A stretch of 64,000 nucleotides of DNA from Candidatus Omnitrophota bacterium (GTDB lineage Bacteria > Hinthialibacterota > Hinthialibacteria > Hinthialibacterales > Hinthialibacteraceae), in NCBI GenBank assembly GCA_013177805.1, contig JABLXU010000008.1, positions 33,239-97,238 of the forward strand, read 5' to 3'. Within the stretch, counting starts at the first letter, position 1. Every line of letters begins with the position of its first letter. The notes under the pieces were generated by a model. That model saw only the letters and a program-made list of their open reading frames with translations. It was not told the origin of the DNA and made no database searches. Made by a program: the position numbers and the translations under genes. Of this stretch, positions 11,153-62,768 are shown one piece after another.

Positions 11153-11185
11153 CCCTCATCCCGGCCTTCTCCCAAGGGAGAGGAG
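11153..11185 (-). repeat. GC-rich palindromic intergenic repeat, copy J
   Basis: ccctcatcccggccttctcccaagggagaggag. Its reverse complement matches the family core TTCCCTCTCCC-N3/4-GGGAGAGGG-CCNGGGTGAGGG. Confidence 0.6.
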
Positions 11186-11314
11186 ATTTTGGGGGCGGTT
11201 TTCATTGATCATTTGGAAAGTTGCGAACCAGTGATCCGAAAAAAAAGTCCCTATTTGCTGGATGAGCCGAAATATCTCTATTTGGTCTATTCGAAATACC
11301 GTTGCGAAACCGGT

Positions 11315-11605
11315 TTAACGCGCTGGGCCCGGGAATTTTCCGTTCAGCCGGTACACGAACACCAAAATCTCCGCCACCGCTTTATACAATTCGGGGGGGA
11401 TCACCCGGCCCCGGTCCACGGCGCTCAACACTTCCACCAAGTCCGGATCCTGGTACAGCGGTATCCGGTACTGTTTCGCGATTTCCAGGATTTTGTCCGC
11501 CAGAATCCCCGCGCCCTTCGCCACCAGCACGGGCGCCGGATCTTCTGCGGGCCGATAGCGCAAAGCGACAGCCTTCTTTCTGCGGTCAATCTTCGATTTT
11601 TTCAT
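11315..11605 (-). CDS. stand-alone FlhB C-terminal domain homologue (EscU/YscU/HrcU family, YlqH-like)
   Basis: 96 aa: AVALRYRPAEDPAPVLVAKGAGILADKILEIAKQYRIPLYQDPDLVEVLSAVDRGRVIPPELYKAVAEILVFVY matches the post-cleavage FlhB/YscU cytoplasmic domain pattern. Confidence 0.75.
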   Translation of the reverse strand: MKKSKIDRRKKAVALRYRPAEDPAPVLVAKGAGILADKILEIAKQYRIPLYQDPDLVEVLSAVDRGRVIPPELYKAVAEILVFVYRLNGKFPGPAR

Positions 11606-11805
11606 GGCCGATTATTTAAGCAGAAAAACCGGCCGGTATCCAATGAGAAAGGGGAGACCCATTCGGGGAGTAGGAGAAAAAATAAGGTACATCACGATTT
11701 CGCTCTTCCGGCGCTCGGCACTCCGGGCTGGACGATACTCCAGAATGGCTACAGGATTCAAATGATTCTCGAAGGGGTTTACATGCTTCTTCGTTGCATT
11801 CCCGC

Positions 11806-13665
11806 TCAAAACCGGTCCCACTCCTCCACCTGGGTGAATTCCCGGAGGTGGATGTTGGAAATAATCACATCGTCTCCGATCCACGGTTCGAGGTCGTAGT
11901 AGTACACCGGTTCATCGTTCCATAGCAGGTGAATTTCCGTCAACCAGGCGCCGTTATGAATGGTCAAACTGAGCCGGTTGTCAATCTCCTCCTGGCCGGA
12001 ATGAATGGAAATAGTCAGAACCTCACCGGTCAGTTCGGTCTCGAACCCCAAGGCCAGGCGATTACGCCAAAAATCCCCATAGGAATTCAGATCCATGACC
12101 ACTATATCGCCGGGCAGACTGTCCAACAGCCTTTCTTGCGCGGTCAACTTAATGATTTTGGAAGGATGAATCAGCAAGACGGTCGGCGCATAATTGTCCG
12201 CGTTGCGGGCGATGACATCCTGCCAGATGGCCAATGCCTCTTCGTAGCTCAGCTCGTTAAAATCGTCTCCATAGACATCCGAAATGGTCATGGGCAGTTC
12301 AATTACATTGGAACGCGGGGAATTGGTGGATTTGTCATAAAAGGTGAAATGGGGGAAGTTGGTTAAAATGTCATTCGCGCTTTGGGAGGAATCATAGAGG
12401 TATCCCAATTCACTGAGCGCGTTGATGAGATATTTGTTGATCAGCAAATGCCCGCTGCGGAACGAGGTGATGGGATATCCCGTATCGGCTTCGAGAATAT
12501 GTTTGGAGACCTCGCACTCGCCGTAAACCGTGGCGCCTACGGATTTCATATTGGCATCGTAAACCGGGTGATAATTTTCCGGAGTGTTGCCGGGCGCGCC
12601 ATATTCAATCTGATGAAAATCCTTGAAATGGCCGACGGAATGACTGCCTAACACAGCGCCATAGCGGGGCAGTTGCTTGACCAATTCGGCCGTCTCCGAA
12701 GTGTAATAGGCTTTATAAAAGGAATCGGTGATATACCGGGTGGTGATGAAATATGTCGCGCGGATATTCCGCTGTTGTTCCATCCGGACGAAATAGAGCA
12801 TGTTTTGCATGGAGGTCATCGCGTCGATATCGTGCGTTAAGATGAGCGACGCCCGGCTTTGGTGCGGGCTGGTGTGTTTGCGGACTGTGTAAGGGATGTA
12901 TTGCTCCGCCAGCGAAAGCAAAAAAAAGATGAAGGCGTCCGTGCCCGGTTCAAATCCGTTTGAATAGATCCGGTTCGCCCCCAGGTCATTGTTCAATAGA
13001 TTCCGCGAGATTAAATCGCTGACCGAAAAGCCCAGGGCCACGGCCTGGCCTTGGCCGAACGGGCACAGCGTCACGGCCGCGGATTGGTCTTCGAATACCG
13101 CCAAGGCCGCCGCGCCCTGCAAATCATACGACTGAGTCATCAGGCCTTCGGGATATTTCTCCGGATTGCTCAGACGGATGACAATCTCCTGGGGATCGTT
13201 GAGCCATCGGCCCATTGCGGGAAAGTTCGACACGAGCCATGTCAGCTGGCTGTGGTCTCTCGCCTGGGTGTAGCCGCGGATGCCAAACATGGGATGGAAA
13301 AAATCATCCCGGATTTTGGGCGCGACCAGTACGCCGCCCTCCCAGACATATTCCGCCAACTTGTTCTTCTCCAACACGGTCAAACTGCTGGTATACACGG
13401 TCGAGGTGATCATGACCATTTCACATTCGCAGGCAGTATCCACATGATCGGTCACTACGTAGGGAACGCCGGCGACTTGCATTGCGTGCTCCAGTGAAAA
13501 CACATTCGCCTGGGATTCGTTGTTGCGTTGGGTAAAGTCCAAAATCGCCACTTTCCGCAACATGATTTCGGGGATAATCGGATTCTGGCACCATCCCATC
13601 CCGGGAAGACTGACCATCAACAAAAAACAGGGAAGAGTCCATTTCGTTGCCGTACGATCATTCAT
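11806..13665 (-). CDS. secreted polysaccharide deacetylase-like (CE4-type) multidomain protein
   Basis: N-terminal signal peptide (WTLPCFLLMVSLPGMGWC). The central region has LILTHDIDAMT ... GSHSVGHFKDF, a metal-binding-like His/Asp pattern of NodB/CE4-related deacetylases. The flanking domains are unassigned. Confidence 0.55.
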   Translation of the reverse strand: MNDRTATKWTLPCFLLMVSLPGMGWCQNPIIPEIMLRKVAILDFTQRNNESQANVFSLEHAMQVAGVPYVVTDHVDTACECEMVMITSTVYTSSLTVLEKNKLAEYVWEGGVLVAPKIRDDFFHPMFGIRGYTQARDHSQLTWLVSNFPAMGRWLNDPQEIVIRLSNPEKYPEGLMTQSYDLQGAAALAVFEDQSAAVTLCPFGQGQAVALGFSVSDLISRNLLNNDLGANRIYSNGFEPGTDAFIFFLLSLAEQYIPYTVRKHTSPHQSRASLILTHDIDAMTSMQNMLYFVRMEQQRNIRATYFITTRYITDSFYKAYYTSETAELVKQLPRYGAVLGSHSVGHFKDFHQIEYGAPGNTPENYHPVYDANMKSVGATVYGECEVSKHILEADTGYPITSFRSGHLLINKYLINALSELGYLYDSSQSANDILTNFPHFTFYDKSTNSPRSNVIELPMTISDVYGDDFNELSYEEALAIWQDVIARNADNYAPTVLLIHPSKIIKLTAQERLLDSLPGDIVVMDLNSYGDFWRNRLALGFETELTGEVLTISIHSGQEEIDNRLSLTIHNGAWLTEIHLLWNDEPVYYYDLEPWIGDDVIISNIHLREFTQVEEWDRF

Positions 13666-13761
13666 TTTCGCCCTGCCTTCCTAATTTTTAATCTTCTGCA
13701 ACAATTTGCTCGATTACAAAGAAGAAATGAATCTCGCCTTTTCAAGGCGGCCTTCAACCTG

Positions 13762-13796
13762 CCCCTCTCCCCGGGGAATAGGGAATTGGTTCCCTT
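13762..13796 (+). repeat. GC-rich palindromic intergenic repeat, degenerate copy A (AGGGAA-loop-TTCCCT subtype)
   Basis: cccctctccccggggaatagggaattggttccctt. It shares CCCTCTCCCC-GGG and the AGGGAA/TTCCCT hairpin with copies G and H. Confidence 0.4.
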
Positions 13797-14132
13797 AGTC
13801 CCGGCTTTATCCCCGGACGGATATCCTGGATTATTTAAAAACGAAGTCGGCGCTGGCACGGCCCTCCCGGCTATGTGGAACTTTTTTATGACGACCAGCC
13901 AGGGAACAAGGGATGTCCAACTCAAGAATTATCTTCGGCCTTGGCAAAGGGAAAATTAAATTTATCAATAGGGGAGGCCTCGGGCGCAGCCAAACCATCC
14001 GCCGCCCGGTTCGCCGCCGTCTACGTCCTGCTTGGTGGTCAGGCCGTTCTTCCAGGTGGATTGGGGGGACACCCTCAGAGTGGAAGCGAATTTTCATGAG
14101 GGAGGTTTGCCGGAAGAATTGCGTTGCGGGGG

Positions 14133-16007
14133 TCATTTTACTCCCACATCCTCCGGCCTGCTCTCCTGGACGGCGAGGATGTCTTCATCGATACCGGGAA
14201 AATCCGGCATCCAACGGCGGGTGTCCTCGAAGTGGCGGATGGCATCCTCGAAACGGTTATCCTGCAAGGCCATGATTCCCAATTGATAATGTGCCTCGGC
14301 GGCTTGGGGATTATCTTGAATGATCGCCTTCAGGAGGGTGCGCGCTTTGTCCTTTTGACCGGCCATCTGGAAAACACGGGCTAGCTGGATGTGGATAAGA
14401 TGGCTTTGGGGGGAGAGTTCCAGCGCCTTCTGGGTATACTGGACGGCTTCGTCCCAGCGCTCCAGTTGGGAATAGGCGATGCCCAGGTTGAAATACGAAG
14501 TGGGATTGTTGGGATCCTCGAAGATCGCTTCCTTGAAAATGTCGATCGCTTGGGGGGTGAATCCCTTCGCCATCGCGGCGAGTCCCTGGTCGTTGCGAAG
14601 ATATACACTGATTTTCGACTTGGGATCCGGCAGGGGGGTGTTCGGTCCCAAGGTTCCCGGAACCACCCCCCCGGCGGCGTATCCCAGCGCGTGAAGCACT
14701 TCCATGCGGTCCGGGGTGATGAGCTGGGAGGCCATGTGGGTTTTCGATTGAGCCAACGCGATTAAGCGGGTTTCCAGGGTATCTTGCATCTCCCGCAGGG
14801 GAGCGGTGGCGGTATTTAGCAGATTGATCCGCTCGCCGGGATCTGTGGCCAACTGATAGAGTTCCGGTTGCGGAGCATGGATATATTTCCATTCCCTATC
14901 CCGCAAGGCGTACAGCGGGCTCCAGTTATAGGTCAGGGGATACATGGTTTCCAGCGTGACTTGCCGGGGCCGGATGGGCGCGTTGTCCAGCAACCAGGGT
15001 GCCAGGCTGATCCCGTTGGTTTCGGCGGGACCCAGGCCGCAGAGATCGGCCAAGGTTGGAAACACGTCCTCGAGGCTGGCGCTTTGTCCGCACCGGATGC
15101 CGATTTGGCGGACTTCCTGCCGGGGCAGCTTGACGATCAAGGGCACTCGGACCGCCTCCTCGTACAAAAACAGGCCGTGGGTGTGTTCCTGGTGATCCCC
15201 CAAACCCTCGCCATGATCCCCCACTACCACGATCAGCAAGTTGTCGTAGAGGTTTTTCGATTTCAAATAGCCGATCAGTTGGCCCAGGCAGTGGTCCACG
15301 TAGGCGATTTCTCCGGCGTAGAGGTCGTGGCGGTATTCTTCGTCAAAGGGGGGAGGCGGATTGTACAACATATGCGGGTCGAAGAAATGCGCGAATAGAA
15401 AGAATGGCTGGGCCTGGCCGGCCTCCAGCCAGGTTTCCAGCCAGCCGGTCGCCGAGTCCACCACCCGCGCGGCTTTGCGTTCCACGACAGGCTGGAACGA
15501 TTCGTAATCTTCCCGCGCGAAGCGGTCGTCGAACCACGCGAAGCCCTGGCCGAGTCCGGACCGGCGCGACAATACGATCGAACCGATGACTCCCGCCGTG
15601 GCATAGCCCGATTCCGCGAACAATTCCGCCAGGGTAAGCGCGTTGTCGTTCAGCAGGTAATTGAAGTTATCCCGCACGCCGTGCTGGATGGGATGCAGGC
15701 CGGTCAGCAGGGTGGCATGGGCGGGCATGGTGAGGGGCACGGGCGTGACCGCGTCGGCGAACCATATGCCGTCCTGAGCCAGTGCCGCCAAAACGGGGGT
15801 TTTGGCCTTATCATCCCCGTAAGGCTGCACATAATCCGCCCGGCAGGTATCGATGCTGACGAGCAGCACGTTTTTTCCGGTAAATACAGAGTTGGTTTTT
15901 TCCTTGCCGGAACAGGCGGAAATCACCGCTACCAAGGCGGACAGAACCGCCGCTTGCCACCATGGACTTAACGCCCTGGGGAACATAACCTTTGTTTTCC
16001 TTCCCAT
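14133..16007 (-). CDS. sulfatase-like (alkaline phosphatase superfamily) enzyme with C-terminal TPR repeats
   Basis: Signal/TM N-terminus. VLLVSIDTCRADYVQPYG metal/nucleophile motif and GDHGEGLGDH motif. The C-terminal roughly 170 aa are TPR-like (AIDIFKEAI..., YFNLGIAYSQLERWDEAVQYTQKALEL). Confidence 0.8.
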   Translation of the reverse strand: MGRKTKVMFPRALSPWWQAAVLSALVAVISACSGKEKTNSVFTGKNVLLVSIDTCRADYVQPYGDDKAKTPVLAALAQDGIWFADAVTPVPLTMPAHATLLTGLHPIQHGVRDNFNYLLNDNALTLAELFAESGYATAGVIGSIVLSRRSGLGQGFAWFDDRFAREDYESFQPVVERKAARVVDSATGWLETWLEAGQAQPFFLFAHFFDPHMLYNPPPPFDEEYRHDLYAGEIAYVDHCLGQLIGYLKSKNLYDNLLIVVVGDHGEGLGDHQEHTHGLFLYEEAVRVPLIVKLPRQEVRQIGIRCGQSASLEDVFPTLADLCGLGPAETNGISLAPWLLDNAPIRPRQVTLETMYPLTYNWSPLYALRDREWKYIHAPQPELYQLATDPGERINLLNTATAPLREMQDTLETRLIALAQSKTHMASQLITPDRMEVLHALGYAAGGVVPGTLGPNTPLPDPKSKISVYLRNDQGLAAMAKGFTPQAIDIFKEAIFEDPNNPTSYFNLGIAYSQLERWDEAVQYTQKALELSPQSHLIHIQLARVFQMAGQKDKARTLLKAIIQDNPQAAEAHYQLGIMALQDNRFEDAIRHFEDTRRWMPDFPGIDEDILAVQESRPEDVGVK

Positions 16008-16078
16008 TCCAGGCTACCGTATAATCTCATACAAGGGAAAGTATAAACGGAATCCACGATCGACAAAGGAACAGAGGA

Positions 16079-18510: not shown

Positions 18511-18579
18511 CTGTGAAAGAAGAGTTTTCGCTCTTTCAGAGCAATCCTCACCTTGCCCCTCGCCCAGAGGGAGAGAGGA
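18511..18579 (-). repeat. GC-rich palindromic intergenic repeat, copy B (extended form)
   Basis: Core cctcaccttgcccctcgcccagagggagagagga (18546-18579), preceded by hairpin TGAAAGA-N-TCTTTCA. The extended part aligns with copy D. Confidence 0.65.
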
Positions 18580-18675
18580 TTTTGAGAAGGGTTTTTCGTC
18601 GATCATTTCGAAGAGATGCGAACCTGGAGTCTGAAAAAGGTACGCACTTGCCGGATGAGCCATGTAATGCCCGTT

Positions 18676-20752: not shown

Positions 20753-21056
20753 CCGGACGATCTTTGAATATTTTTTAAATTTCGCTTATTTTATGAATAG
20801 AATTCGATCAATCATGACTATAATGGTAAACTAATTAGGTACTGTACGAAATGGGATTGCCGGTTATGAATCAATTGAAATAAAATAAAAATTTCAAAAA
20901 TTTCATCTGGACCTCTTGCTTTACTCGTACCATAATTTAACATAAGTACCACATTATATTTATCTTAAGTTTTAATTATTGATCCTCCCACCGTTTTTCC
21001 CTCTCCGATGGGTATCACCTCCTGCTGCAAATCAGGCTTGTGCATACGATTAATTG

Positions 21057-24491: not shown

Positions 24492-24625
24492 TAGAAACAA
24501 AAAGGATTGCATGCGTCTAAACGAAATGTCGTTGAGTCAGGACGGTTTGAGTGAAGCGTAATTCCCCATGGTTAACCTGTTTTTCATCAAGAACGTCTTG
24601 GCGCACAATAGGGGGGTCTTTTCTG

Positions 24626-24662
24626 CCCCCTCTCCCCCCGGGAGAGGGCCGGGGTAAGGGAA
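24626..24662 (+). repeat. GC-rich palindromic intergenic repeat, copy C
   Basis: ccccctctccccccgggagagggccggggtaagggaa. Confidence 0.65.
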
Positions 24663-24780
24663 ATTAGAACCAAAGGCCTGACATTGCTTCCTCGTCGGTG
24701 GGAAGATACTAACATCGGAAATGCAGGGTTTTTTAAAATATATAAAATAATATTGAAGTCCATCATAACGGGAGGAAATC

Positions 24781-27310: not shown

Positions 27311-27382
27311 CAGAGAAAGAAGATGCGTTTCACTCTTTCAGGGCCACCCTCACCCTGCCCTCGCCCAGAGGGGGAGAGGGAA
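27311..27382 (-). repeat. GC-rich palindromic intergenic repeat, copy D (extended form)
   Basis: Core ccctcaccctgccctcgcccagagggggagagggaa (27347-27382), preceded by hairpin GAAAGA-N-TCTTTC. It lies between 10-bp direct repeats GGTACTTGCC at 27246-27255 and 27470-27479. Confidence 0.65.
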
Positions 27383-27548
27383 AGTGAAGCGTTCTCATCC
27401 ATACTCAGGCCACGAATTAAGCTCTGAGGTCGTTTTGCATTCGAGTGAAGTGATATACGAAAACATGCCGGTACTTGCCGATGGACTCCCGTGAGTTTAA
27501 ATGGACAAGGAGATGGGTAATGTTTTTTAGAAAACAAGGTTGTCGAGC

Positions 27549-32859: not shown

Positions 32860-34547
32860 TGCGATGCAAAACGGCGCGCGCGTTGATGATGGAACGGCTG
32901 TATGAACCGCCGGTTCCGGAGGAAGCCGCCCAGCTGGAGATCCACCTGGCAGCGTGCCCCACTTGCGCGGCGGAATGGGACGAGGTGCAACGCGCGCATG
33001 CTATCTTGAGAAAATTTCAAGATCCGGCCGTGCCCCTCTGGCTGGAGAGGAAAGTGACTGCCGCATCGAGGGCGGATTCCACTCTCGGGATAGGGATTCC
33101 GGAGCGGCGGGTCCGTGTGCGCCTGTGGATGAAACTGGCGGCGGCGGCCTCGTTCTTGTTGCTGCTGGCCGGGGTGTATCCCTATACCTGGCAGAATTCC
33201 GTTTCCCTTCGGCCTCCCATCCAGAAAGAGGCGGTTCCCGAGCGAGCGGCAGCGGGGATTGCGCTTTCTCCCGCCGTAGATCTTCCCGCCGCGCCGCCAA
33301 TCGCGATGGAACCACTCCCGGAAGCTCCCGCGCCGGCCGATCCGCCTGCGCTGGGGGTGACAACGAGGCGGAGGGCTGGTCTGGCGTCTCCCACCGATGC
33401 CGAAACGCTGGCGGCGGGACGCCCGGTCCGGGCCTTCCAGGCTCAGCCCGAAGCGAAACTGGCAGCGAAACCGGAGGAAGCGGACGGGAATCAAAAAGCC
33501 GAAGAGTTGTTCCGCACCGGATTGAAGCTCTACAACACCGCGTTCACCAAAATCGGAGAGGATCAGAAGACATTGCTGAAAAGCGCCATCGTGATGCTGG
33601 AGGATGTAGAGAAGCAACATTCCGGTGAGACTTATTGGATCGCGCTGGCGTTGATCCTTATCGCCGATTCGTACCGCGCGCTGGGCGACACAGAGACCGC
33701 GGCCCGGACGTATCAGCGGATGATCGAGCGTTTTCCGGATCAAGAAACTTATTGCCGGCAGGCGCGGGAGTCACTGGTTAAGTTATGGCTCAACCGTTCG
33801 GAGACCGTGCAACAGGCCGAAAACGAATTGGATGTGTACGCGGCCAAGTATCCGGGCAGCCTGGAGTTCGCGCGGCTGGCGATGGCGTTTTGCGAGATTA
33901 CGCGGCGGGAGCATCCGGACCGGGCCATGGCCTGGTGCCGGCGGGTGATGGAGCAGTTTCCGGACCAGCATCCCGAGCGGCAGAAAGCCTCGCGGATGCT
34001 GGCACTAGTTGAAAATCCCTTACGGGACACGTTCTACATCGAATCCTGGTGGCTGATGGGGCCGTTGCCGGCAGAGACGTTGCCTGAAGAAGGGGAGGGA
34101 TTCCGTCTTGCCTCCTGGCTCAAGCCGCTGCGGAAGCCCCTAACGAGTCCACGGTACGAATTGCGGCGGGAACGGGGAATGGAGATCGATCTGGAGAAAG
34201 AATTCAAGAACACCGTGGCCCCGGCGAGCGCCTTCGCGCGGACCTATCTCCACAGCGCCACGGACGCGGAAATCTTTCTGCAAACCGGCTTCAGTGACGG
34301 CATCCGGATCTGGTGCAACAACGCTCCCGTGTGGGGCCAAATCACGCATCAGGATTACCAGAAAGACCAATACGCGGTGATGCTGCCCCTCAAGGCGGGA
34401 TGGAACGAAATCCTGATCAAAACCTACCACTTGCGTCCGGAAGCGGCCTGGAAGTTCAGCGCGATTCCCACCGGCTTGGATGGACATCTGTTGCCGGAGT
34501 TGAAGGTTGATCCAGGCAAGGGCGGCGCGATCAGCTTGAGCGAATGA
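32856..34547 (+). CDS. anti-sigma factor (zf-HC2), single-pass membrane, with extracytoplasmic TPR-like and beta-rich C-terminal domains
   Basis: The ATG at 32856 overlaps the sigma stop (ATGA). HLAACPTCAAEWDE is the zinc-finger motif. TM segment LWMKLAAAASFLLLLAGVYPY. A Pro/Ala-rich linker is followed by helical repeats and a C-terminal FLQTGFSDGIRIWCNNAPVWG jelly-roll-like segment. Confidence 0.75.
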   Translation: MMRCKTARALMMERLYEPPVPEEAAQLEIHLAACPTCAAEWDEVQRAHAILRKFQDPAVPLWLERKVTAASRADSTLGIGIPERRVRVRLWMKLAAAASFLLLLAGVYPYTWQNSVSLRPPIQKEAVPERAAAGIALSPAVDLPAAPPIAMEPLPEAPAPADPPALGVTTRRRAGLASPTDAETLAAGRPVRAFQAQPEAKLAAKPEEADGNQKAEELFRTGLKLYNTAFTKIGEDQKTLLKSAIVMLEDVEKQHSGETYWIALALILIADSYRALGDTETAARTYQRMIERFPDQETYCRQARESLVKLWLNRSETVQQAENELDVYAAKYPGSLEFARLAMAFCEITRREHPDRAMAWCRRVMEQFPDQHPERQKASRMLALVENPLRDTFYIESWWLMGPLPAETLPEEGEGFRLASWLKPLRKPLTSPRYELRRERGMEIDLEKEFKNTVAPASAFARTYLHSATDAEIFLQTGFSDGIRIWCNNAPVWGQITHQDYQKDQYAVMLPLKAGWNEILIKTYHLRPEAAWKFSAIPTGLDGHLLPELKVDPGKGGAISLSE

Positions 34548-34706
34548 ATCATCTTCGGGGAGATGGAAAAAGTAGATATTCCTTAATCCGTATGATGAAC
34601 CTTTTAGACTGCGATGGATGAACAATCCTTGAGCGCCAAAGGCGCGGAAGAAACTAGCCCAGGGCGTTGCCCTGGGATGAGTCCAACAACAATCCCTCCT
34701 TTTCAT

Positions 34707-34743
34707 TTCCCTCTCCCTCTGGGAGAGGGGCTGGGTGAGGGAA
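34707..34743 (+). repeat. GC-rich palindromic intergenic repeat, copy E
   Basis: ttccctctccctctgggagaggggctgggtgagggaa. Confidence 0.65.
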
Positions 34744-34843
34744 GCCCTGAAAGGGCGGAAGAATCAATATTCTGTGGATCCTGCGTGATGTGATCGGTGT
34801 GAAGAGGTTTAAGGCTGTTCCTAATACGCGATTCGAGGTTGTC

Positions 34844-40441: not shown

Positions 40442-40574
40442 GAGCATCAAAAGGAGTAAGGCAAACCGGGAGGTCGTACCTCCAGTTGAGCCGTTATAAA
40501 ATCCATCGGATTTGGATTACAAAGCCCAATGCAGGGTGGGCTCAAAGCGCGGCGTAACCCACCAAAGTAACTTC

Positions 40575-40609
40575 TTCCCTCTCCCCGGGAGAGGGCCAGG
40601 GTGAGGGAA
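40575..40609 (+). repeat. GC-rich palindromic intergenic repeat, copy F
   Basis: ttccctctccccgggagagggccagggtgagggaa. Confidence 0.65.
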
Positions 40610-40629
40610 AACCTTTGAAAAACCAAAAA

Positions 40630-40669
40630 CGCCCGAAGAGGTCTAAAATCTCTCCGGGCGCTTTTTTTT
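40630..40669 (+). terminator. rho-independent terminator after the alpha-2-macroglobulin gene
   Basis: CGCCCGAAGAG ... CTCTCCGGGCG stem (one mismatch), followed by C + T8 at 40661-40669. The A-run on the 5' side allows weak bidirectional use. Confidence 0.6.
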
Positions 40670-45231: not shown

Positions 45232-45242
45232 GCCAAAATATC

Positions 45243-52429: not shown

Positions 52430-52637
52430 TCGGCGCTCGCATAGATTTATATAATACGATCCCCATCTTATTTCATTTCCCGCCGGGCAATCAAGCAATC
52501 CCGGGGAGTTCAGGGATCGTTCAAGCCGCCCTGAGTGGAAACCTGGGCCATTGCCCTGCCGTGAAGCGGCTTCAAAACTGACTCGAATATAGACAAAGTT
52601 GAAAATTCGACATTTCAGGATTCCATCACCCTATTTT

Positions 52638-52674
52638 GCTCCCGGAGGGAGAGGGAAATGGTAAGCCTTCCCTT
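52638..52674. repeat. GC-rich intergenic repeat, copy G (GGAGGGAGAGGGAA subtype)
   Basis: gctcccggagggagagggaaatggtaagccttccctt. It shares the 14-mer GGAGGGAGAGGGAA and the terminal TTCCCTT with copy H. Confidence 0.55.
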
Positions 52675-54824: not shown

Positions 54825-54846
54825 ATCCGGTGGATCCGGGACGGGA

Positions 54847-55939: not shown

Positions 55940-56968
55940 TTACGTCCGATACCTATGAAACAGCGCATCGCACAAGCCGCATACCGGCCGTTGGTTGTCA
56001 AAAAATTCTTTTTCTTTCCGAGAACGCCACGCTTCCACGAGAGTCATGCCGGGTGTTCCCAACGCACCGATGGCGTAGTCCCGCAGGTTGCAGCAAGGCG
56101 TAATGGTCCCCTCGACGGTGATGTACACACTGTCGTCCGTCCGCAGGCAAATCCCATCGAAACGCGTGGCCAGGCGCAGGGGGAGGGATTGCTGATTCAG
56201 GGTCCGCACCCTGACGCCTTGTTCCCGGCCCGCGCGCCGCAGCTCCGCGAGCATGGCCTGCTCCCGTTCCCAACTTGGCCGCGGGACGGGATTTTCCGGA
56301 TATGGCTGCATCCGCGCCAGGTGGACGGCGTGGAGAGAATGCTCGGCCGCGAAGTGAATATACCGCCGGACATCCTCCAAGTTCTCTTCCACCACCAGTG
56401 CCTGCAGAATCAACGGCGTTTGGTTCATCAAGTCCTGATCCGCGGCATAATCCACCAGATGGCGGAAGGTCTTGGGCGAGGGCGGATGCAAAATATCCCG
56501 CCATTCCCGGGGGATGTCCTGCCGGTCCGGCCATAAGTCTACCGAGACGGTCACGACTTCGACCTGGAGTTCTTTGATCTGTTCACGCCGCTTTTCGTCC
56601 AGCAAAATCCCGTTGGTAGTGAAGCGGACTGCCGTATCCGGCCAATGTTGGTTGCTAAGGGCGATTATCGCAAAAAAATTGGGATGCAAGAGCGGCTCGC
56701 CCCAGCCGGTCAGTACCAGCCGTTTGGGCGCGGGATTGGTTTGCACCAGATTTTCGAACAGGGGAAGAGGAAAATCGCGCTGGGGGACCGTCCCGTGGGT
56801 ATGCGGGCACATGGCGCATTGCAGGTTGCAGGCGTTGGTGACCTCGATCTGAATTTCTTCCGGATACGCGCTCCGTTTCCGGGCCAGCAGGCGGAAAAAT
56901 TTGGCCGCGTTGTCCAAGGAGGAACGCATGGCATTCACCGGGCTGCCCGGCGGGTCTGGTCCCGCCAT
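55940..56968 (-). CDS. radical SAM protein with Cys-rich SPASM/twitch-like C-terminus
   Basis: IEVTNACNLQCAMCPH (CxxxCxxC). GWGEPLL motif. C-terminal cysteines in TITPCCNLRDYAIG and PVCGLCDALF. An alternative start at 56929 would remove the 34-nt overlap with the upstream gene. Confidence 0.8.
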   Translation of the reverse strand: MAGPDPPGSPVNAMRSSLDNAAKFFRLLARKRSAYPEEIQIEVTNACNLQCAMCPHTHGTVPQRDFPLPLFENLVQTNPAPKRLVLTGWGEPLLHPNFFAIIALSNQHWPDTAVRFTTNGILLDEKRREQIKELQVEVVTVSVDLWPDRQDIPREWRDILHPPSPKTFRHLVDYAADQDLMNQTPLILQALVVEENLEDVRRYIHFAAEHSLHAVHLARMQPYPENPVPRPSWEREQAMLAELRRAGREQGVRVRTLNQQSLPLRLATRFDGICLRTDDSVYITVEGTITPCCNLRDYAIGALGTPGMTLVEAWRSRKEKEFFDNQRPVCGLCDALFHRYRT

Positions 56969-58431: not shown

Positions 58432-59918
58432 ACTCCCGTTGCTTTCATTCCGGCCTCGGATTTAGGGGTTTTTTTCATGAATACCGTGCGCGCCAGGGCC
58501 GCCCCGCTTTTCAGCAAACCTGTCACATAGCGGGGCGAGGGATTGCGAAGCACCCGGCCGGTATAGTTCAAGATCGTGCGCGGCCGGAAATAGAACGATC
58601 GCAGAATCTTGCGCTGCCAGTACCGCAGATCGTCCGCTGTCAATCCGTGCGGCACAAACACCGGCGTCAAGAGGTTCATCTTGGTCCAGTCGTCATCGAA
58701 CGTTCCATATTCATGGGCGTATTTGCTTAACGGCGAACCGGGGAACGGAGTCATGCAGGTGACAGTGATATCCGAAAAGGGTACGTCCTGAGTCAACCGG
58801 TAGGTCGCCGCCAGCGTCTCCCGCGTTTCCCGGGGATGTCCGACGATGAAGAATCCCTTGGAGGCGATCCCCGCCCGGCGGGTGTTCTCGATGCCCTCGT
58901 GGATTTGGCTGAGTTTTAACTGCTTGTCCTCGTGGTCCAAAATTTCTTGCGAGCCGCTCTCGATGCCGTAACTGATATGCCAGCACCCCGCCTCTTTCAT
59001 CCGTTTCAGTAAATCCGGCTTGGCGAGATTGACACGGCTGTTGCAGGCCCAGGTCATGTTCAGACCGCGCTGGAGCAGCAGATCGCAAAACCGTTCGACG
59101 TTTTGGCGAAAGACCATGAAGGTATCATCTTCGAAAGTCACGTCGCGGATACCGAACGTTTTATGCAGATAGTCGAACAGGTCCACCATGTATTCGGCCG
59201 AGTGCGTCCGGATCTTCCGCCCGAAGACGCTGGTGTCGCAGAACGAGCACTCGAATGGGCAGCCCCGCGAGCTCACGAACGAGACCGAGGGTACCTGCGC
59301 CACCTTGAAATACCCGGGCGTGTATTTCGCGGGGAAATCCCGCAGCAGGTCCCACGCGGGGTAAGGCAGAGAATCCAGATCCATGAAAGCCCGCCGGGCG
59401 GGTGTTTTGATGAGTTGGCCCGCCCCGTTCCGGCATACGATCCCGCCAATGGATGTAAAATTCCGGCTTCCCTCTTCCAGCGCTTCGAGGATTTCCAAAA
59501 TGGTCTCCTCTCCCTCATGAACCGCCGCCAAGTCGAATTCCGGACAACGCCGCAGGGTTTCTTCAGGAATCGCGGTGGCGTGGGGGCCGCCGATGGCGAT
59601 CACCGTCTCCGGCCAGCAAGCCTTGACCGCGCGCGCCAGCCGTTCCGCCGGAATGGTAGTGAGAGTGGTGGTGGTAAAACCGATGAACGCAGGCGGCGTT
59701 TCCCGCAGCCGTTCCATGACTTCGTTCAAGGTCAGATTTTCCGCCGCCGCGTCGATAACCGCGGCCTTGTACCCTGCTTTCCGGGCGATGGCCGCCAAAA
59801 TCACCGAGGCGAGGCATGGCGTGCAATTGCCAGTCGCCGCCAGAGGGCCGTAGCGTTCTTCCATCGAGACCGGCGGGGTCATGAAAACAGCTAGAGGTTT
59901 GGAGTTGGATACGATCAT
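58425..59918 (-). CDS. class B (B12-binding domain) radical SAM protein
   Basis: The N-terminal domain has VIAIGGPHATAIPEETL, typical of the cobalamin-binding domain in COG1032-type enzymes. It is followed by VSSRGCPFECSFCDTS (CxxxCxxC). Confidence 0.85.
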   Translation of the reverse strand: MIVSNSKPLAVFMTPPVSMEERYGPLAATGNCTPCLASVILAAIARKAGYKAAVIDAAAENLTLNEVMERLRETPPAFIGFTTTTLTTIPAERLARAVKACWPETVIAIGGPHATAIPEETLRRCPEFDLAAVHEGEETILEILEALEEGSRNFTSIGGIVCRNGAGQLIKTPARRAFMDLDSLPYPAWDLLRDFPAKYTPGYFKVAQVPSVSFVSSRGCPFECSFCDTSVFGRKIRTHSAEYMVDLFDYLHKTFGIRDVTFEDDTFMVFRQNVERFCDLLLQRGLNMTWACNSRVNLAKPDLLKRMKEAGCWHISYGIESGSQEILDHEDKQLKLSQIHEGIENTRRAGIASKGFFIVGHPRETRETLAATYRLTQDVPFSDITVTCMTPFPGSPLSKYAHEYGTFDDDWTKMNLLTPVFVPHGLTADDLRYWQRKILRSFYFRPRTILNYTGRVLRNPSPRYVTGLLKSGAALARTVFMKKTPKSEAGMKATGVC

Positions 59919-60070
59919 GATGAATGATTATGAAGGATCCCCGCAGAAAAATCAATATATGACTTGTTTGGTAAAGATTCAAACATGGCTTTTAAGCCGT
60001 AAAACCAGATTGGTAGTGCCGGCAAGGGAATGTTAGTATGATGGTGTGGGAAAAAGTTTTTCAAATTCTT

Positions 60071-60104
60071 GCTGGAGGGAGAGGGAACCGTATATTGTTC
60101 CCTT
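60071..60104. repeat. GC-rich intergenic repeat, copy H (GGAGGGAGAGGGAA subtype)
   Basis: gctggagggagagggaaccgtatattgttccctt. Confidence 0.55.
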
Positions 60105-60309
60105 CAAAGTTTATCTCAAAAATAGAGCAGTGAGAAAGTTCTGCAGCCGAGTACTAACGTTTCCGGATACCGGCACTGAAAAAGTCGAAAACGCTTGGAT
60201 TCAAATCCTACGGGGTTGGAATTCATCATATGATACCGTAGGCTATCGCTTATGCCTACGGCTATTCACATGAATCCCTTTCGGGGTTTGGAGCAAAAAA
60301 AACAACCTG

Positions 60310-61320
60310 ATGCACAATCCACCTTACTCCTTTACTCCCCGGATTTCGTTCATTGTTCCCATGTACAACGCCCGGGAGACAGTCATCGAAACCTTGGAAA
60401 GCATCCTCGCGTTAAAAACCGACGGGGCCTTGGAAATCCTGGTGGTGGATGACGGCTCATCGGATGGTTCGCCCGAGGTCGTGGAGGATTGGCTCGCGAG
60501 GCAGAAGACACAACCGGAACGGGTTGCAATCCGTGTCTTACGAAGACCCCACGGAGGCGAGGCGGTGGCCATAAACGCCGGACTCGAAAAAGCTGCCGCG
60601 CCTTTCATCGCCTGGGTGGAAAGCGACGTGCGTCTGCATCCCGATTGGCTGATCCCGCTGCTCATTGAATTGGAGGATCCCGCCGTGGCCGGGGCGGGAG
60701 GCGTGCTCTATCCCTCGCCCAACGATCCCCCCGTGGCCCGGATATTCGGCTATGAAATCGCGCACAAGATCCGGTCTAACCACGGCGACGCGATTCACAT
60801 CACCAGCGCCAACGCCCTCTACCGGCGTAACATTTTTACACAGCTGGGTCCCTGCCGGGCTGATCTAGGCGAATCGAGTTTCGATTCCGAATACAACCAG
60901 CGGATCCGAGAAGCCGGTTACCGGCTGGTATGCAATCAGCGCGCGCGAGCCTGGCATCACTACAAAGGAAGCTTGTTGGAATGCCTGTGCCGCGCGGCCT
61001 GGTATGGTTTCCGCCGCCCGATGGTCAAGACCCAAGTGCTCTACCCATTCGACCGCGTGATCGGTCTTTTGGTGGCTTCGTCGATGTTGCTGGTCCCGGC
61101 TCTGGCCTTGTGGTGGATTTCACTGGGTTTTTCGCTGGGACTGATCGTGTTCGTTCTGGCGGCGCATGTTGGATATTCGTTCTATTTGTACACCCGTTAC
61201 CGGGATTGTGCCCTGCTCGCGGCCGGGCCGGTGTTTTTATTGCGCAACGTGGTATTCTTGGCGGCGTATTGGGCCGGATGGATCAACAAGCTCCTGGGAA
61301 TGAAGCGTAACCGCCCGTGA
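60310..61320 (+). CDS. family 2 glycosyltransferase with C-terminal membrane segments
   Basis: ISFIVPMYNARETVIETLESIL...ILVVDDGSSDGS (GT-A DxD region), then a hydrophobic C-terminus of 3-4 TM. Confidence 0.85.
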   Translation: MHNPPYSFTPRISFIVPMYNARETVIETLESILALKTDGALEILVVDDGSSDGSPEVVEDWLARQKTQPERVAIRVLRRPHGGEAVAINAGLEKAAAPFIAWVESDVRLHPDWLIPLLIELEDPAVAGAGGVLYPSPNDPPVARIFGYEIAHKIRSNHGDAIHITSANALYRRNIFTQLGPCRADLGESSFDSEYNQRIREAGYRLVCNQRARAWHHYKGSLLECLCRAAWYGFRRPMVKTQVLYPFDRVIGLLVASSMLLVPALALWWISLGFSLGLIVFVLAAHVGYSFYLYTRYRDCALLAAGPVFLLRNVVFLAAYWAGWINKLLGMKRNRP

Positions 61321-62570
61321 ATATCCTGCACGTGGTCCCCTATTTTCCACCCACACGCCGCCACGGGGGAGTGCCCGAGGCGGTCCTGGCGCTGGTCCGC
61401 GCGCAAATCGGACTCGGCCACTCTGTTACAGTGCTCACCAGTGACGCCGGATTGTCCCCGGAAGATTCTCATCCGGAAATCGCCTTGCAGTGGATCAAAC
61501 AAGGCGGTCTCACCGCATTGGGAATCCTGCGGAGGACGCCGGTTCTTTACGTCAGGAACCGCTTTGCCATACTGGCGGAACGGGGGAAATTCTTCACGCC
61601 GCGGCTGACCGCCCCGGAGGTTCTCGCGCGCCTTCCCATGGTTATCGATGCCGCTCATTTTCACGAAGTCCACATTCCCGGATACTGGAGCGCCGCAAGG
61701 GAATTCGCGCGGCGGGGGGCGGTGGTTTGTGTGTCTCCCCACGGGTCGCTGAATCCGCCCACGCACCGCGGTGTCAAGCGGATTTTTCATCGATGCCTGG
61801 ATCCCTGGCTGCGCGCCGGCTGGTTTTCCCAATGCGGTGCGTATTTCGCGCTCGGCCGGGCTGAACGGGAGCAACTGTTGCGCGGTGGGATTCCACCAGA
61901 GAGAATTCACATCCTTCCCCATGGCCTGCCTGAGTGGGAACCTTCCCACTCCATCCCTTTGCCCTTTCCGGTTGAGGCCAATCCAGCCGTGGTGACGTTT
62001 TTGGTCCTGGGACGATTGCACGAATCCAAGGGAGTTGTTCAAGTTTTCAGGGCATTTCAAGCACTTTGGAAGAACAATCGGCGGCCACGCCTGGTCTTTT
62101 GCGGTCCGGATGAAGGCTGCGCCGTATTCATCCGGAATGGGTGCCATCAGCGGGGGATTCCCTTTGAAACAGGCCATATAGGAGCCTCTGCCGGCGTGTA
62201 CATTCTTTCACCCGTGCCCCATGTCAATCTCCCAGCGCTGTTCGTCTTGGCGGATTGGACCATTTGCCCCTCGCCCTATGAAGCCTTTGGATTGGTTCCC
62301 ATCGAATCGTTACATTGGGGCATACCGGTGGTGGCCACAACGGGATACGGATGTTTGGAATACATTCCCCAATCGAGTCCCTTGTTAAAAATTATTCCTC
62401 CCAGTGATCCGGCCGCGCTGCGAACCGCCTTGGAAGAGTGTCTCGTATCCCCGAGAGGGGAGCGCCCCGCATCCGGTTGGAATCCAGGCTTGCCTTCCTG
62501 GCGGGAGGTGGCGGAGCGGGTGGTGGAGGTCTATCAGGGGAGTGTAATGCAGAGATCGGTTGGATATTAA
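61317..62570 (+). CDS. GT-B (GT4-like) glycosyltransferase
   Basis: The GTG start overlaps the preceding stop (GTGA). MNILHVVPYFPPTRRHGGVPEAVLALVRAQIGLGHSVTVLTSD. C-terminal EAFGLVPIESLHWGIPVVAT (E-x7-E-like motif). Confidence 0.85.
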   Translation: MNILHVVPYFPPTRRHGGVPEAVLALVRAQIGLGHSVTVLTSDAGLSPEDSHPEIALQWIKQGGLTALGILRRTPVLYVRNRFAILAERGKFFTPRLTAPEVLARLPMVIDAAHFHEVHIPGYWSAAREFARRGAVVCVSPHGSLNPPTHRGVKRIFHRCLDPWLRAGWFSQCGAYFALGRAEREQLLRGGIPPERIHILPHGLPEWEPSHSIPLPFPVEANPAVVTFLVLGRLHESKGVVQVFRAFQALWKNNRRPRLVFCGPDEGCAVFIRNGCHQRGIPFETGHIGASAGVYILSPVPHVNLPALFVLADWTICPSPYEAFGLVPIESLHWGIPVVATTGYGCLEYIPQSSPLLKIIPPSDPAALRTALEECLVSPRGERPASGWNPGLPSWREVAERVVEVYQGSVMQRSVGY

Positions 62571-62732
62571 TAGATTTTATTGCAGAATATCCCAAAAATT
62601 TGGATGAAAATTGTCAAGTATGGATTTTATCTAGGTTTTTGATATATACTGAAATGGTTCCGCGATGAGTGGATTCCGCGGCAATCAACCGCTCGTTAGA
62701 TTTCTAGAGACATGTACCAAATCTTTTCTCTC

Positions 62733-62768
62733 TTCCTCTCCCTCCGGGAGAGAGCCGGGGTGAGGGAA
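62733..62768 (+). repeat. GC-rich palindromic intergenic repeat, copy I
   Basis: ttcctctccctccgggagagagccggggtgagggaa. Confidence 0.65.

Follow-up and report, generated by a model that had tools for sequence, protein, structure and literature searches.

We asked what the GC-rich palindromic repeat is that recurs between genes across a 64,000-nucleotide stretch of a Candidatus Omnitrophota genome (the window, hereafter), and whether its placement reflects a role in RNA, as the original prediction supposed, a role in DNA, or the spread and decay of a repeat. An HMM was built from the seven canonical copies, whose coordinates and strands all proved correct, and the window and genome were scanned with nhmmer. 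The scan detected nine copies in the window, beside one truncated copy, and 581 in the 5.58-Mb genome. The core consensus is CCCTCTCCC-N3-GGGAGAGGG-N3-GGGTGAGGG, within a unit of ~37 nt that reads (TT)CCCTCTCCC-N3-GGGAGAGGG-N3-GGGTGAGGG(AA), and we agree with the earlier view that block 1 is able to pair with either G block. The copies and associated features of the window are as follows.

11146..11194, minus strand: copy J (canonical coordinates 11153-11185), three-block core with module U1 upstream in element orientation; nhmmer and sequence
13727..13789, minus strand: copy A, degenerate, with block 3 decayed and a D1-like hairpin; nhmmer and reverse-complement sequence
18523..18587, minus strand: copy B (canonical 18546-18579), U1 module, core and D1 hairpin (GCTCTGAAAGAGCG); sequence and nhmmer
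20994..21013, no strand: half-site candidate, a block-1-like run only; sequence, no nhmmer match
24618..24667, plus strand: copy C (canonical 24626-24662), block 3 reading GGGTAAGGG; sequence and nhmmer
27322..27388, minus strand: copy D (canonical 27347-27382), core and D1 hairpin; sequence and nhmmer
34632..34676, minus strand: Acido-Lenti-1-like hairpin module adjoining copy E; Rfam RF01687, 44.1 bits
34698..34762, plus strand: copy E (canonical 34707-34743), core and D1 hairpin (GCCCTGAAAGGGCG); sequence and nhmmer
40573..40618, plus strand: copy F (canonical 40575-40609), first loop of 1 nt only; sequence and nhmmer
40631..40669, plus strand: terminator-like hairpin and T-run 3' of copy F, context and not repeat; sequence and fold
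52605..52665, minus strand: copy G, decayed, with block 2 eroded; nhmmer and sequence
60071..60104, minus strand: copy H, truncated, keeping only GGAGGGAGAGGGAA and a small hairpin; sequence, undetected by the HMM
62723..62769, plus strand: copy I (canonical 62733-62768); sequence and nhmmer

Copies A, G and H had been set apart as a subtype, a division that we abandon: A and G are degenerate ordinary minus-strand copies and H is a truncated one. Nor do we count the half-site among the members. The four spurious GEG-type open reading frames attributed to the repeat all exist, reading LPLGEGQGE, SPSGRGQGEGG, PLPEGEGNE and PLPGGEGAE.

The claim of a dispersed GC-rich family was confirmed by every control. 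The two-block core gave no match over 100 shuffles, the three-block pattern gave none in 2 Mb of order-3 Markov sequence, compared with 193 in the genome at up to one mismatch per block (the relaxed set), and a backwards control pattern gave none in the 41 genomes scanned. A motif made of simple purine and pyrimidine runs, in a metagenome bin of 93 contigs whose contamination is estimated at 5.2%, might be taken for a chance product of GC-rich low-complexity spacers or of mis-assembly. However, this reading is effectively refuted by the controls, and the same copies are found in independent same-species assemblies (99.5% identity) as well as at orthologous sites of another species, leaving an artefact next to no probability.

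Judged by its sequence, the repeat is a motif already known from E. coli as BoxC / PIT / TM_ECO, an intergenic repeat of 35 nt prone to form hairpins, triplexes and G-quadruplexes (Holder 2015, NAR 43:10126, PMC4666352; Kaplan 2016, PMC5100583; earlier sources, cited in Holder et al. 2015, are Bergler 1992, Bachellier, and Hoyne and Maher 2000, 2002). The published pattern, 5'-CCCTCNCCC-N3-6-GGGNGAGGG-N3-GGGNGAGGG-3' with one mismatch tolerated (PMC4666352), has 83 exact matches in the genome (the strict set), and the relaxed set was defined by the same pattern. In the window, copy E fits it exactly and copies C, I, J, B and D fit within a few mismatches. The E. coli sequences in Table 1 of PMC4666352 are near-identical to the repeat, and copy F matches unannotated DNA in 5420 of 5426 E. 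coli genomes at 82 to 95% identity over at least 80% of 43 nt. The two families share the three blocks and their spacing, the A in block 2 and the T in block 3, the loop-2 variants CCG and TTA, a dispersed, intergenic distribution that is patchy among close relatives, inverted pairs, and rearranged spacers around some copies. The same sequences were described as HPG1/HPG2, a G-quadruplex-hairpin-duplex switch of E. coli (Kaplan et al. 2016, NAR 44:9083, PMC5100583), in which G3-N3-G3-N3-G3-N3-G3 follows a 5' C-rich partner; here GGG-AGA-GGG-CCA-GGG-TGA-GGG follows CCCTCTCCC, giving four G3 tracts with 3-nt loops. HPG1/HPG2 elements, too, are all intergenic, lie mostly between tandem genes and include opposite-strand pairs.

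As a piece of biology this identification is ordinary, the motif being a known one of unknown function; what may interest specialists is its spread across more than 15 phyla, an orientation that follows strand composition, and the Acido-Lenti-1 hairpin as a mosaic module. The exact 33-nt motif, with its asymmetry of A in block 2 and T in block 3, turned up in genomes whose labels span more than 15 phyla, far exceeding the proteobacterial range of the 2015 survey. That survey reported 262 genomes of Proteobacteria, none with more than 143 copies (PMC4666352), whereas the genome analyzed here carries 83 strict copies and its congener G001 carries 462. The host also differs, being an uncultured anaerobic-digester lineage whose gene content suggests the PVC group. 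The phylum spread and the polarity toward the C-rich strand described below appear in neither Holder 2015 nor Kaplan 2016.

The repeat is strongly confined to spacers. Although genes cover 81% of the genome, 548 of the 581 HMM copies (94%) lie outside gene calls and 33 inside; all nine window copies lie between gene calls, upholding the claim that none overlaps a coding sequence. Copy-bearing spacers are long, with a median of 374 nt compared with 144 nt for spacers lacking the repeat; among spacers of 100 nt or more, 22% contain a copy.

Presence among relatives is patchy (20 of 41 carry the motif), and strict copy number differs fivefold between this genome and G001 and ranges from 0 to 462 within one family, where 10 of 19 members are without the motif, several of them 94 to 99% complete. 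Each genome has its own master variant: in this genome (G000) loop 1 is TCT with flanks ATT..AA, while in G010 loop 1 is GCC or CAC, loop 2 is CTA or TTA, and the flanks are GTC..GGAATTTCAAAA. Conservation is uniform along the element, with loop and tract positions equal, and changes are mostly one-sided (305 + 391 C>T or G>A) versus 46 compensated. Unlike in E. coli, the core is fused to D1, GTAG-type and Acido-Lenti-1-like hairpins and to a terminal-inverted-repeat unit, and copies form arrays with periods of 150 and about 181 nt. Module D1 occurs on 97 copies, D2 on 70 and U1 on 51. A further module of these mosaics, by its behavior in this genome, is the hairpin that Rfam lists as "Acido-Lenti-1 sRNA", with 39 of its 56 genomic occurrences within 120 nt of a core copy; the one by copy E belongs to a composite repeat of ~130 nt (34629-34760) that has many copies in G001, where the 117-nt unit 18546-18662 around copy B is likewise multicopy at ~82% identity. 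Inverted pairs 100 to 300 nt apart in this genome comprise 13 minus-plus and 2 plus-minus pairs with unrelated intervening spacers, and G020 has clear inverted pairs of A-type (TTA-loop) and B-type (CCG-loop) copies at a fixed spacing of 171 nt; A-type/B-type inverted pairing is also known from E. coli (PMC4666352).

Such features recall REP/BIME/REPIN elements mobilized by RAYT (Y1) transposases, which likewise are palindromic, extragenic and ~35 nt long, number in the hundreds, cluster as mosaics, occur as inverted doublets and differ in variant from genome to genome. The core has three blocks rather than two, though, and no GTAG-type 5' tetranucleotide, GTAG being present only in the separate D2 module. 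Across the 41 genomes the presence of Y1_Tnp does not follow that of the motif (G022 has 169 copies and no Y1 gene, G021 has 13 Y1 genes and no copy), and in this genome the only clear Y1 gene, G000:C89, has another repeat on its flanks. We therefore do not place the repeat among RAYT-dependent REP/REPIN elements. Likeness to MITEs is confined to one subfamily, which sits within a unit of ~215 bp bearing 22-bp terminal inverted repeats (GGCTCATCCGGCAAGTGCGTAC), and to the G020 pairs, whose fixed spacing resembles units ending in the motif itself. In contrast to MITEs, 343 of the 581 copies have none of the six flank modules screened, and neither a target-site duplication nor a cognate transposase was found; no multi-copy open reading frame lies between inverted copies.

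We consider it probable that the repeat is a lineage-specific expansion of BoxC / PIT / TM_ECO (HPG1/HPG2), amplified and then decaying in spacers, with orientation set mainly at the DNA level. Amplification would have proceeded inside each genome from its own master variant, the repeat would be tolerated in spacers only and would combine with other modules into mosaics and arrays, and decay would follow by GC-to-AT transitions. The amplification may be active and "selfish", although no transposase or other mobilizing gene was found for the repeat and Y1/RAYT genes do not track it, both of which count against such an account. The original prediction had named a compositional artefact and a decaying mobile element as the two readings to fall back on should an RNA role fail; the first is discarded, and a decaying mobile or amplified element is favored.

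Comparison with G001 shows both turnover and retention. Among the nine copy-bearing spacers of the window, five are rearranged in the congener: copy J lies within a stretch of ~310 nt absent from the orthologous spacer, for example, and the copy-G spacer is not alignable. The truncated copy H corresponds to an insertion of ~97 nt in G001 that includes a full CCCTCACCC-TGA-TCCTCTCCC-AGA-GGGAGAGGG element. The other four copies are kept at orthologous sites (C, E, F and I), within spacers that are 81 to 97% identical versus a gene average of 83%. The whole copy-E spacer (34548-34789) is 97% identical, compared with 82 to 87% for its flanking genes, the copy-I spacer is 92% identical, and the spacers of E, F and I are all more conserved than neighboring genes. 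This retention could reflect constraint, and therefore function, at some loci.

Retention is one of several observations that would suit a functional DNA element, that is, a duplex/hairpin/triplex/G-quadruplex switch or a conserved protein's binding site, kept by selection for regulation, nucleoid organization, replication or recombination. The A of block 2 and the T of block 3 are nearly invariant (79 to 80 of 82 copies in this genome, 57 to 58 of 58 in G010), a constancy across phyla that neutral drift alone would not readily explain. An identical motif in so many phyla, the inverted A/B pairing shared by E. coli and G020, the polarized orientation, and the ion-dependent switch between G-quadruplex and hairpin observed in vitro for HPG1/HPG2 (PMC5100583) point the same way. 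Selection for such a role is at odds, however, with the absence of the motif from half a family, a patchiness that Salmonella and E. coli repeat (PMC4666352), with the range of copy number in that family and the decayed state of most copies, and with the rearranged window spacers. In E. coli no link between the elements and gene function or distance emerged, and DMS footprinting in vivo showed no sign of a triplex (PMC4666352). A regulatory switch was proposed for HPG1/HPG2, whereas G tracts here are conserved no more than loop bases and so provide no G-quadruplex-specific signal. Altogether, we regard a selected DNA element as unlikely, and amplification followed by decay as the better account.

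The original prediction hinted at an RNA-level role because the window copies lay mostly in the sense orientation. Within the window this pattern stands, with eight of nine copies sense to the flanking or nearest gene and copy D the only one antisense to its flanking genes, but it fails genome-wide. When orientation was tabulated, the 330 tandem spacers gave 198 sense to 132 antisense copies, a weak bias of about 60:40 (33:25 for strict copies), most of which is accounted for by local GC skew. Copies in convergent spacers do not favor the nearer gene (38:51), and divergent spacers are not significantly depleted, with densities per kb of 0.45 in divergent, 0.54 in convergent and 0.57 in tandem spacers (hand chi-square ~4.9, df 2, p ~0.09). 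A search for compensatory changes in the stems yielded no excess over register controls (co-change odds ratios of 1.4 to 1.9 versus 1.1 to 1.6), and RNA fold z-scores of the repeat alone, from −0.1 to −1.8, were not significant.

With intrinsic (Rho-independent) terminators and 3'-UTR stabilizer hairpins the repeat shares a GC-rich hairpin, here of 9 bp, located in spacers 3' of genes. In contrast to such hairpins, both orientations of the repeat are common, divergent spacers are populated, and no T-run or U-tract follows the repeat hairpin, the 3' flank consensus being AA..CCTG. Between 24000 and 41500, no copy of the window was picked up by a terminator scan, and in E. coli the elements showed neither promoter nor terminator activity (Hoyne and Maher 2002, as cited in PMC4666352). 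We thus rejected the repeat as an intrinsic terminator. A sense-transcribed hairpin, or alternative hairpins, serving as a 3'-UTR stabilizer, processing site or protein-binding site would still gain from the residual sense bias beyond skew (gene-strand coefficient 0.39, CI 0.11-0.68), from the well-conserved spacers of E, F and I, and from copy F, which is located between the stop codon of a 1883-aa gene and the terminator-like hairpin, itself conserved in G001, and should therefore be in a 3' UTR. Against these, the bias is slight, covariation does not exceed controls, skew governs orientation more than genes do, and purine-motif triplexes do not form in RNA (PMC4666352). We consider the proposed RNA-level role improbable, more so than selection on a DNA element.

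Orientation in this lineage tracks DNA strand composition more than gene direction. The C-G-G strand of the element lies on the locally C-rich strand in ~70% of copies, or 157 of 218 once declustered (block-bootstrap CI 0.62-0.78). This fraction grows with skew, from ~50% at |skew| below 0.01 to 72 to 81% above 0.06, and it holds within gene-orientation strata. Tests that account for clustering weaken the result, with p=0.033 in a 50-kb block sign test and a nonsignificant 21:12 at the contig level. In G010, 49 of 70 copies lie on the C-rich strand (p=0.001), and G020 shows a nonsignificant trend in the same direction (22:14). The polarity is absent in E. coli K-12, where our replichore tally of Table 1 in PMC4666352 gives 10 opposite and 13 same; its dependence on composition can be demonstrated here because hundreds of copies are available.

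The rRNA, rpoC and rpsF/rplY loci are on the G-rich strand, and we infer that the C-rich strand is the lagging strand and hence the leading-strand template. GC skew in these draft genomes flips at a scale of ~100 kb, so that reading skew as replication direction is itself inferential. Isolated single-stranded E. coli motif forms a stable intrastrand triplex by CD and NMR (PMC4666352), and the repeat, with block sequences identical to those measured, would be expected to do the same. Three folds would be open to its single strand: a hairpin of 9 bp, an intrastrand triplex of the purine-motif type in which block 1 and block 2 form the duplex and block 3 lies on it, or a G-quadruplex of four tracts. 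The preference of the C-G-G strand for the C-rich strand may have arisen mainly at the DNA level, the structure-prone strand being gained less, or lost more through its structure, where lagging-strand synthesis leaves it single-stranded as template; REP-like elements share this polarity, as expected from processes acting on single-stranded DNA at the fork. More speculatively, replication may shape the pan-bacterial BoxC/TM motif in vivo and keep the structure-prone C-G-G strand off the lagging-strand template, either because a triplex or G-quadruplex folding there leads to loss of the copy or because the motif is copied, by a mechanism common to many phyla, via a single-stranded intermediate at the fork. 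We hold this extension only tentatively and think it somewhat doubtful; if true, it would provide, for a motif that has awaited a function since the 1990s, the first trace within genomes of non-B DNA formation or of a route of mobilization.

For annotation, copies should be masked as BoxC-type repeats, being a source of spurious "GEG" reading frames. BoxC-type copies probably break assemblies as well: G008, a fragmented relative, has many strict copies no more than ~120 nt from the end of a contig.

The seven canonical copies of the original prediction (C, E, F, and I on the plus strand; J, B, and D on the minus strand) lie exactly where, and on the strand on which, they had been placed when checked against the sequence. 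The core typically consists of a C-rich block 1 followed by G-rich blocks 2 and 3, separated by 3-nt loops, and we refer to the strand read in this order as the C-G-G strand. The core pattern had no match in 100 dinucleotide-preserving shuffles, and the three-block pattern, with one mismatch allowed per block, had 193 matches in the genome versus zero in 2 Mb of simulated order-3 Markov DNA. In a repeat search of the window, the plus-strand copies formed one family (D2 of that search), to which the minus-strand copies were joined by inverted-repeat matches reaching past the 35 nt first described. A genome-wide profile scan had been proposed as a check, and a hidden Markov model (HMM) started from these seven copies, with one round of iteration, returned 581 matches in the 5.58-Mb, 93-contig genome, nine of them in the window. 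The unit of repetition is a ~37-nt core with TT...AA flanks, where similarity between copies mostly stops sharply. A separate subtype (copies A, G, and H) had also been described, but A and G are decayed ordinary minus-strand copies and H is a truncated one; at the site of H, the orthologous spacer of G001, a congener of another species, carries a ~97-nt insertion holding a full CCCTCACCC-TGA-TCCTCTCCC-AGA-GGGAGAGGG element. The half-site suggested at 20994 was unsupported, and the four spurious open reading frames (ORFs) ascribed to the repeat are present and encode GEG-type peptides.

The window consensus, CCCTCTCCC-TCT-GGGAGAGGG-CCA-GGGTGAGGG, fits the Escherichia coli element TM_ECO, including the A of block 2 and the T of block 3. 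TM_ECO, earlier named BoxC and later PIT, is defined as 5'-CCCTCNCCC-N3-6-GGGNGAGGG-N3-GGGNGAGGG-3' (Holder et al. 2015, PMC4666352). Exact matches to the published pattern occur at 83 sites in the genome, and alignments of copy F were obtained in 5420 of 5426 complete E. coli genomes (82 to 95% identity), in unannotated DNA every time. An Rfam search returned no family for the motif itself, its sole match being a neighboring Acido-Lenti-1 hairpin. We conclude that the repeat was observed correctly and belongs to a known family, here in a new host. In vitro, the E. coli motif forms a stable triplex as a single strand (PMC4666352), while Kaplan et al. (2016, PMC5100583) interpreted these sequences as a quadruplex, G3-N3-G3-N3-G3-N3-G3, that competes with a hairpin, and saw an ion-dependent switch in vitro between G4 and the other fold. 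Given these published readings, the two alternative hairpins of the original prediction, whose pairing options do exist, become one of three views, alongside triplex and G4, of a single known motif. In E. coli, dimethyl sulfate (DMS) footprinting in vivo gave no triplex signal, earlier tests found neither promoter nor terminator activity, no link to gene function emerged, and motif-bearing loci were rearranged more often among strains (PMC4666352).

A search for the exact motif in ~186,000 species genomes listed at least 110 stretches. Going by record titles, the matches listed include Planctomycetota, Verrucomicrobiota, Chloroflexota, Acidobacteriota, Cyanobacteria, Myxococcota, Desulfobacterota, Nitrospirota, Omnitrophota, Elusimicrobiota, Calditrichota, Bacteroidota/Rhodothermota, Actinomycetota, Binatota, and many Pseudomonadota, although single matches in metagenome bins could be contamination. 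The range listed goes well beyond that of the 2015 survey, with its 262 proteobacterial genomes (PMC4666352). Closed genomes with many copies of the motif include those of Enterobacter asburiae LF7a and Microcystis aeruginosa NIES-843 (PMC4666352).

Closer to the host, 20 of 41 relatives carry the motif, as do 9 of the 19 in the same family, and several genomes that are 94 to 99% complete have zero copies. Copy number ranges from 0 to 462, with 83 in the host genome (G000) and 462 in its congener G001. The dominant variant, flanks included, is peculiar to each genome, as in the following examples:

G000, the genome containing the window: loop 1 TCT; flanks ATT..AA
G010, a relative in another genus: loop 1 GCC or CAC, loop 2 CTA or TTA; flanks GTC..GGAATTTCAAAA
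G008, a further relative: block 1 CCCTCGCCC, loop ACC

In G020, a relative in another family, copies form inverted pairs in which a copy with loop 2 TTA/GTA always accompanies one with loop 2 CCG at a fixed start-to-start spacing of 171 nt, for example:

C1:20557-20760: inverted pair
C2:232248-232451: inverted pair

This inverted pairing of two variants matches the A+B pairing of E. coli, though in a very distant lineage (PMC4666352). The patchy presence, the range of copy numbers, the variants particular to each genome, and the G020 pairs point to within-genome amplification.

A RAYT/REP system was considered as the vehicle and rejected. The host does encode one clear Y1 (IS200/RAYT-like) transposase:

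G000:C89:141185-142050: Y1 transposase gene, ~149 aa

However, this gene is flanked by a different repeat, since on both sides stand direct copies of a segment of ~140 nt that contains three small hairpins (CCCAGGGTTTTAACCCTCGG, CCAGGGTTGAAACCCTGGGC, and GGCCCCTTGAAAGGGGCGC), including an Acido-Lenti-1-like one; the segment may be the cognate REP of the Y1 gene. Furthermore, Y1 and the motif are unrelated in their distribution across the 41 relatives: one genome (G022) carries 169 copies but lacks Y1 genes, and another (G021) carries 13 Y1 genes but lacks the motif. Among 47 inverted pairs of copies 0.6 to 3.5 kb apart, none delimits an autonomous element with motif termini. The ORFs they enclose are ordinary paralogous genes, none in more than five copies, namely those for prepilin-type N-methyl proteins and Gfo/Idh/MocA-like oxidoreductases (sequences read by eye). 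Separately, the 5' end of a prepilin-type N-methyl gene in the window (10077-10709, minus strand; matching segment, 10558-10686) has dozens of matches in G001 at 80 to 93% DNA identity, which represent a very large paralogous family with the conserved N terminus FTLIELLIVVAIIGILAAIAVPNF. Large families of this kind are typical of PVC-group bacteria.

Six flank modules were screened; 343 of the 581 copies have none of them and the remainder carry one or more. Three of the modules are as follows:

D1: 97 copies; small hairpin GCCCTGAAAGGGCG, then ~45 nt
D2: 70 copies; TTTTTGTAGGGGCGGACCTTGGTGTCCGCCC, GTAG plus hairpin, REP type
U1: 51 copies

Together, U1, the core, and module D2 make up a ~215-bp unit between 22-bp inverted repeats, GGCTCATCCGGCAAGTGCGTAC and GTACGCACTTCCCGGATGAACC. 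From its sequence architecture, this U1/core/GTAG-hairpin composite looks like a MITE; examples occur genome-wide and in the window:

18588-18662: composite at copy B
11195-11260: composite at copy J

Cores also alternate with a hairpin matching Acido-Lenti-1, in arrays that repeat every 150 nt (contig C39) or ~181 nt (C36). Hairpins of this type (GCCCAGGG-loop-CCCTGGGC) number 56 in the genome at an E value of ≤1e-3, of which two exceed the gathering score, and 39 of the 56 lie within 120 nt of a BoxC-type core, partly in tandem arrays of 150 to 181 nt. Their sites include the following:

window 34632-34676, minus strand: Acido-Lenti-1-like hairpin
G000:C36:16879-18656: Acido-Lenti-1-like hairpins
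G000:C23:10142-11165: Acido-Lenti-1-like hairpins
G000:C68: Acido-Lenti-1-like hairpins

In this genome, the Acido-Lenti-1 hairpin behaves as a repeat module, not a single sRNA gene, and the genome holds BIME-like mosaics of several such modules. Another dispersed family is probably represented at 60199-60286 of the window, a stretch interpreted earlier as a structured leader whose hairpins exclude one another; G001 contains ≥10 copies of this stretch at 75 to 78% identity.

Gene calls from a self-trained periodic Markov model (3641 genes, 81% of the genome, conservative) contain 33 of the 581 copies. Spacers with a copy have a median length of 374 nt, versus 144 nt without, and 22% of spacers of at least 100 nt hold one. 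Densities differ little by spacer type (chi-square, ~4.9; 2 degrees of freedom; p ~0.09 by hand calculation):

Divergent spacers: 107 copies in 240 kb, 0.45 per kb
Convergent spacers: 89 copies in 165 kb, 0.54 per kb
Tandem spacers: 330 copies in 578 kb, 0.57 per kb

This similarity indicates that the element is not specific to gene 3' ends. The sense orientation that the original prediction noted for six of the seven canonical copies applies to eight of nine copies in the window, a proportion unrepresentative of the genome, where tandem spacers hold 198 sense and 132 antisense copies (p = 3e-4; 33:25 among exact matches to the published pattern). In convergent spacers, a bias toward the nearer gene is absent (38:51).

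With copies and flanks masked, copy orientation was set against local GC skew. In G000, the C-G-G strand is the locally C-rich strand for 66% of copies, and for 72% (157/218) at one copy per kb. This fraction climbs with skew, from ~50% at |skew| <0.01 to 72 to 81% above 0.06, and the polarity holds in plain, D1, D2, and U1 copies. Genes show almost no alignment with skew (51 to 54% co-oriented). In tandem spacers, sense copies account for 37.5% when the genes are on the G-rich strand versus 74.5% when they are on the C-rich strand, and a logistic model of 252 declustered tandem spacers gave -0.247 per 1% skew (bootstrap confidence interval [CI], -0.34 to -0.17) with a gene-strand term of 0.39 (CI, 0.11 to 0.68). 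The strata and the model indicate that orientation comes mainly from strand composition, with gene sense contributing a smaller remaining bias. The polarity is weaker once clustering is accounted for: the block-bootstrap confidence interval of the C-rich-strand fraction is 0.62 to 0.78, a sign test on 50-kb blocks gives 41:23 (p = 0.033), and the count by contig is 21:12, not significant. Copies oriented opposite to and with the skew in other genomes were as follows:

G010 (another genus, 8 contigs): 49:21, p = 0.001; 24:6 at |skew| ≥0.06
G020 (another family): 22:14, same direction, not significant
E. coli K-12: 10:13, replichore tally of PMC4666352 Table 1

By locus, a majority is opposite to the skew at 27 loci of G010 and with it at 11 (hand count). 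The positions assumed for the K-12 tally were ~3.92 Mb for oriC and ~1.6 Mb for the terminus.

Leading- versus lagging-strand placement is absent from both E. coli studies (PMC4666352, PMC5100583). In G000, the rRNA operon, rpoC, and the rpsF/rplY region are on the G-rich strand, and the S10 operon locus is neutral. The G-rich strand is usually the leading strand, and the position of these marker loci fits that assignment. Since skew in G000 and G010 reaches ±10 to 14% and its sign flips about every 100 kb, even on Mb-size G010 contigs, we infer rather than observe a link to replication. If skew does mark replication, the structure-prone C-G-G strand would preferentially be the template of the leading strand and would be less exposed as single-stranded DNA. 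This is the direction predicted if folding of the lagging-strand template causes loss of copies, or if copying uses the complementary strand there.

The sense bias of ~60% that is left after skew control is compatible with the RNA-level role put forward in the original prediction. However, folding the repeat as RNA gave no advantage over shuffles (z, -0.1 to -1.8), and on the 3' side AA leads into variable sequence, where a T-run never occurs. In 384 distinct full cores, changes on one side alone (305 + 391, predominantly C>T or G>A) greatly exceed the 46 compensated ones, and co-change odds ratios were 1.38 for block 1:block 2 and 1.90 for block 1:block 3, versus 1.07 to 1.61 in parallel-register and slid controls. 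The proposed check for covarying stems in genome-wide copies thus found nothing above the register controls in these cores, for stem, triplex, or G4. Conservation is similar at all block positions (80 to 94%), with G tracts no better conserved than the intervening A or T bases; this evenness fits copies drifting from a master sequence, not selection on one fold. An RNA-level role is the weaker reading. Most likely, a short repeat has undergone amplification followed by decay, with single strands folding to a hairpin, triplex, or G4, and DNA-level processes would shape the sites and orientations in which copies persist.

Comparison with G001 (mean gene identity, 83%) shows both retention and turnover. 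Copies C, E, F, and I are retained at orthologous sites, in spacers of 81%, 97%, 94%, and 92% identity, respectively, while eight alignable copy-free spacers average 77%. Five others are not retained: A, B, D, and G lie in unalignable spacers, and J falls within a ~310-nt indel. In these small numbers, copy-bearing spacers are either unusually conserved, which argues for constraint at some loci, or rearranged, which agrees with the published "instability." At the strain level, no gain or loss of copies was seen in ten contigs with an identical hppA product and 98.7 to 100% identity to the window, and the strain contigs keep copies J and A. In two contigs (L017 and L018; 98.7 to 99.1% identity), synteny ends near window position 10855, ~300 nt before J, and a TPP-enzyme gene follows in place of the window's genes, a strain-level rearrangement. 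Protein look-ups for two other flanking proteins returned no strain-level contigs; the NCBI assemblies with the hppA locus are GCA_029551245.1, GCA_046128215.1, GCA_035361715.1, and GCA_035372085.1. The organism occurs in anaerobic digesters, with samples that include JGI 3300009658 and 3300010338 and ENA ERZ27257413. One spacer of the window, before a gene of 1883 aa (34530-34800), is 93 to 100% identical to G001, compared with 82 to 87% for its flanking genes. All of its changes lie in hairpin and triplex loops, among them an inversion of GTT to AAC that affects the loop of the Acido-Lenti-1-like hairpin (~34666-34668).
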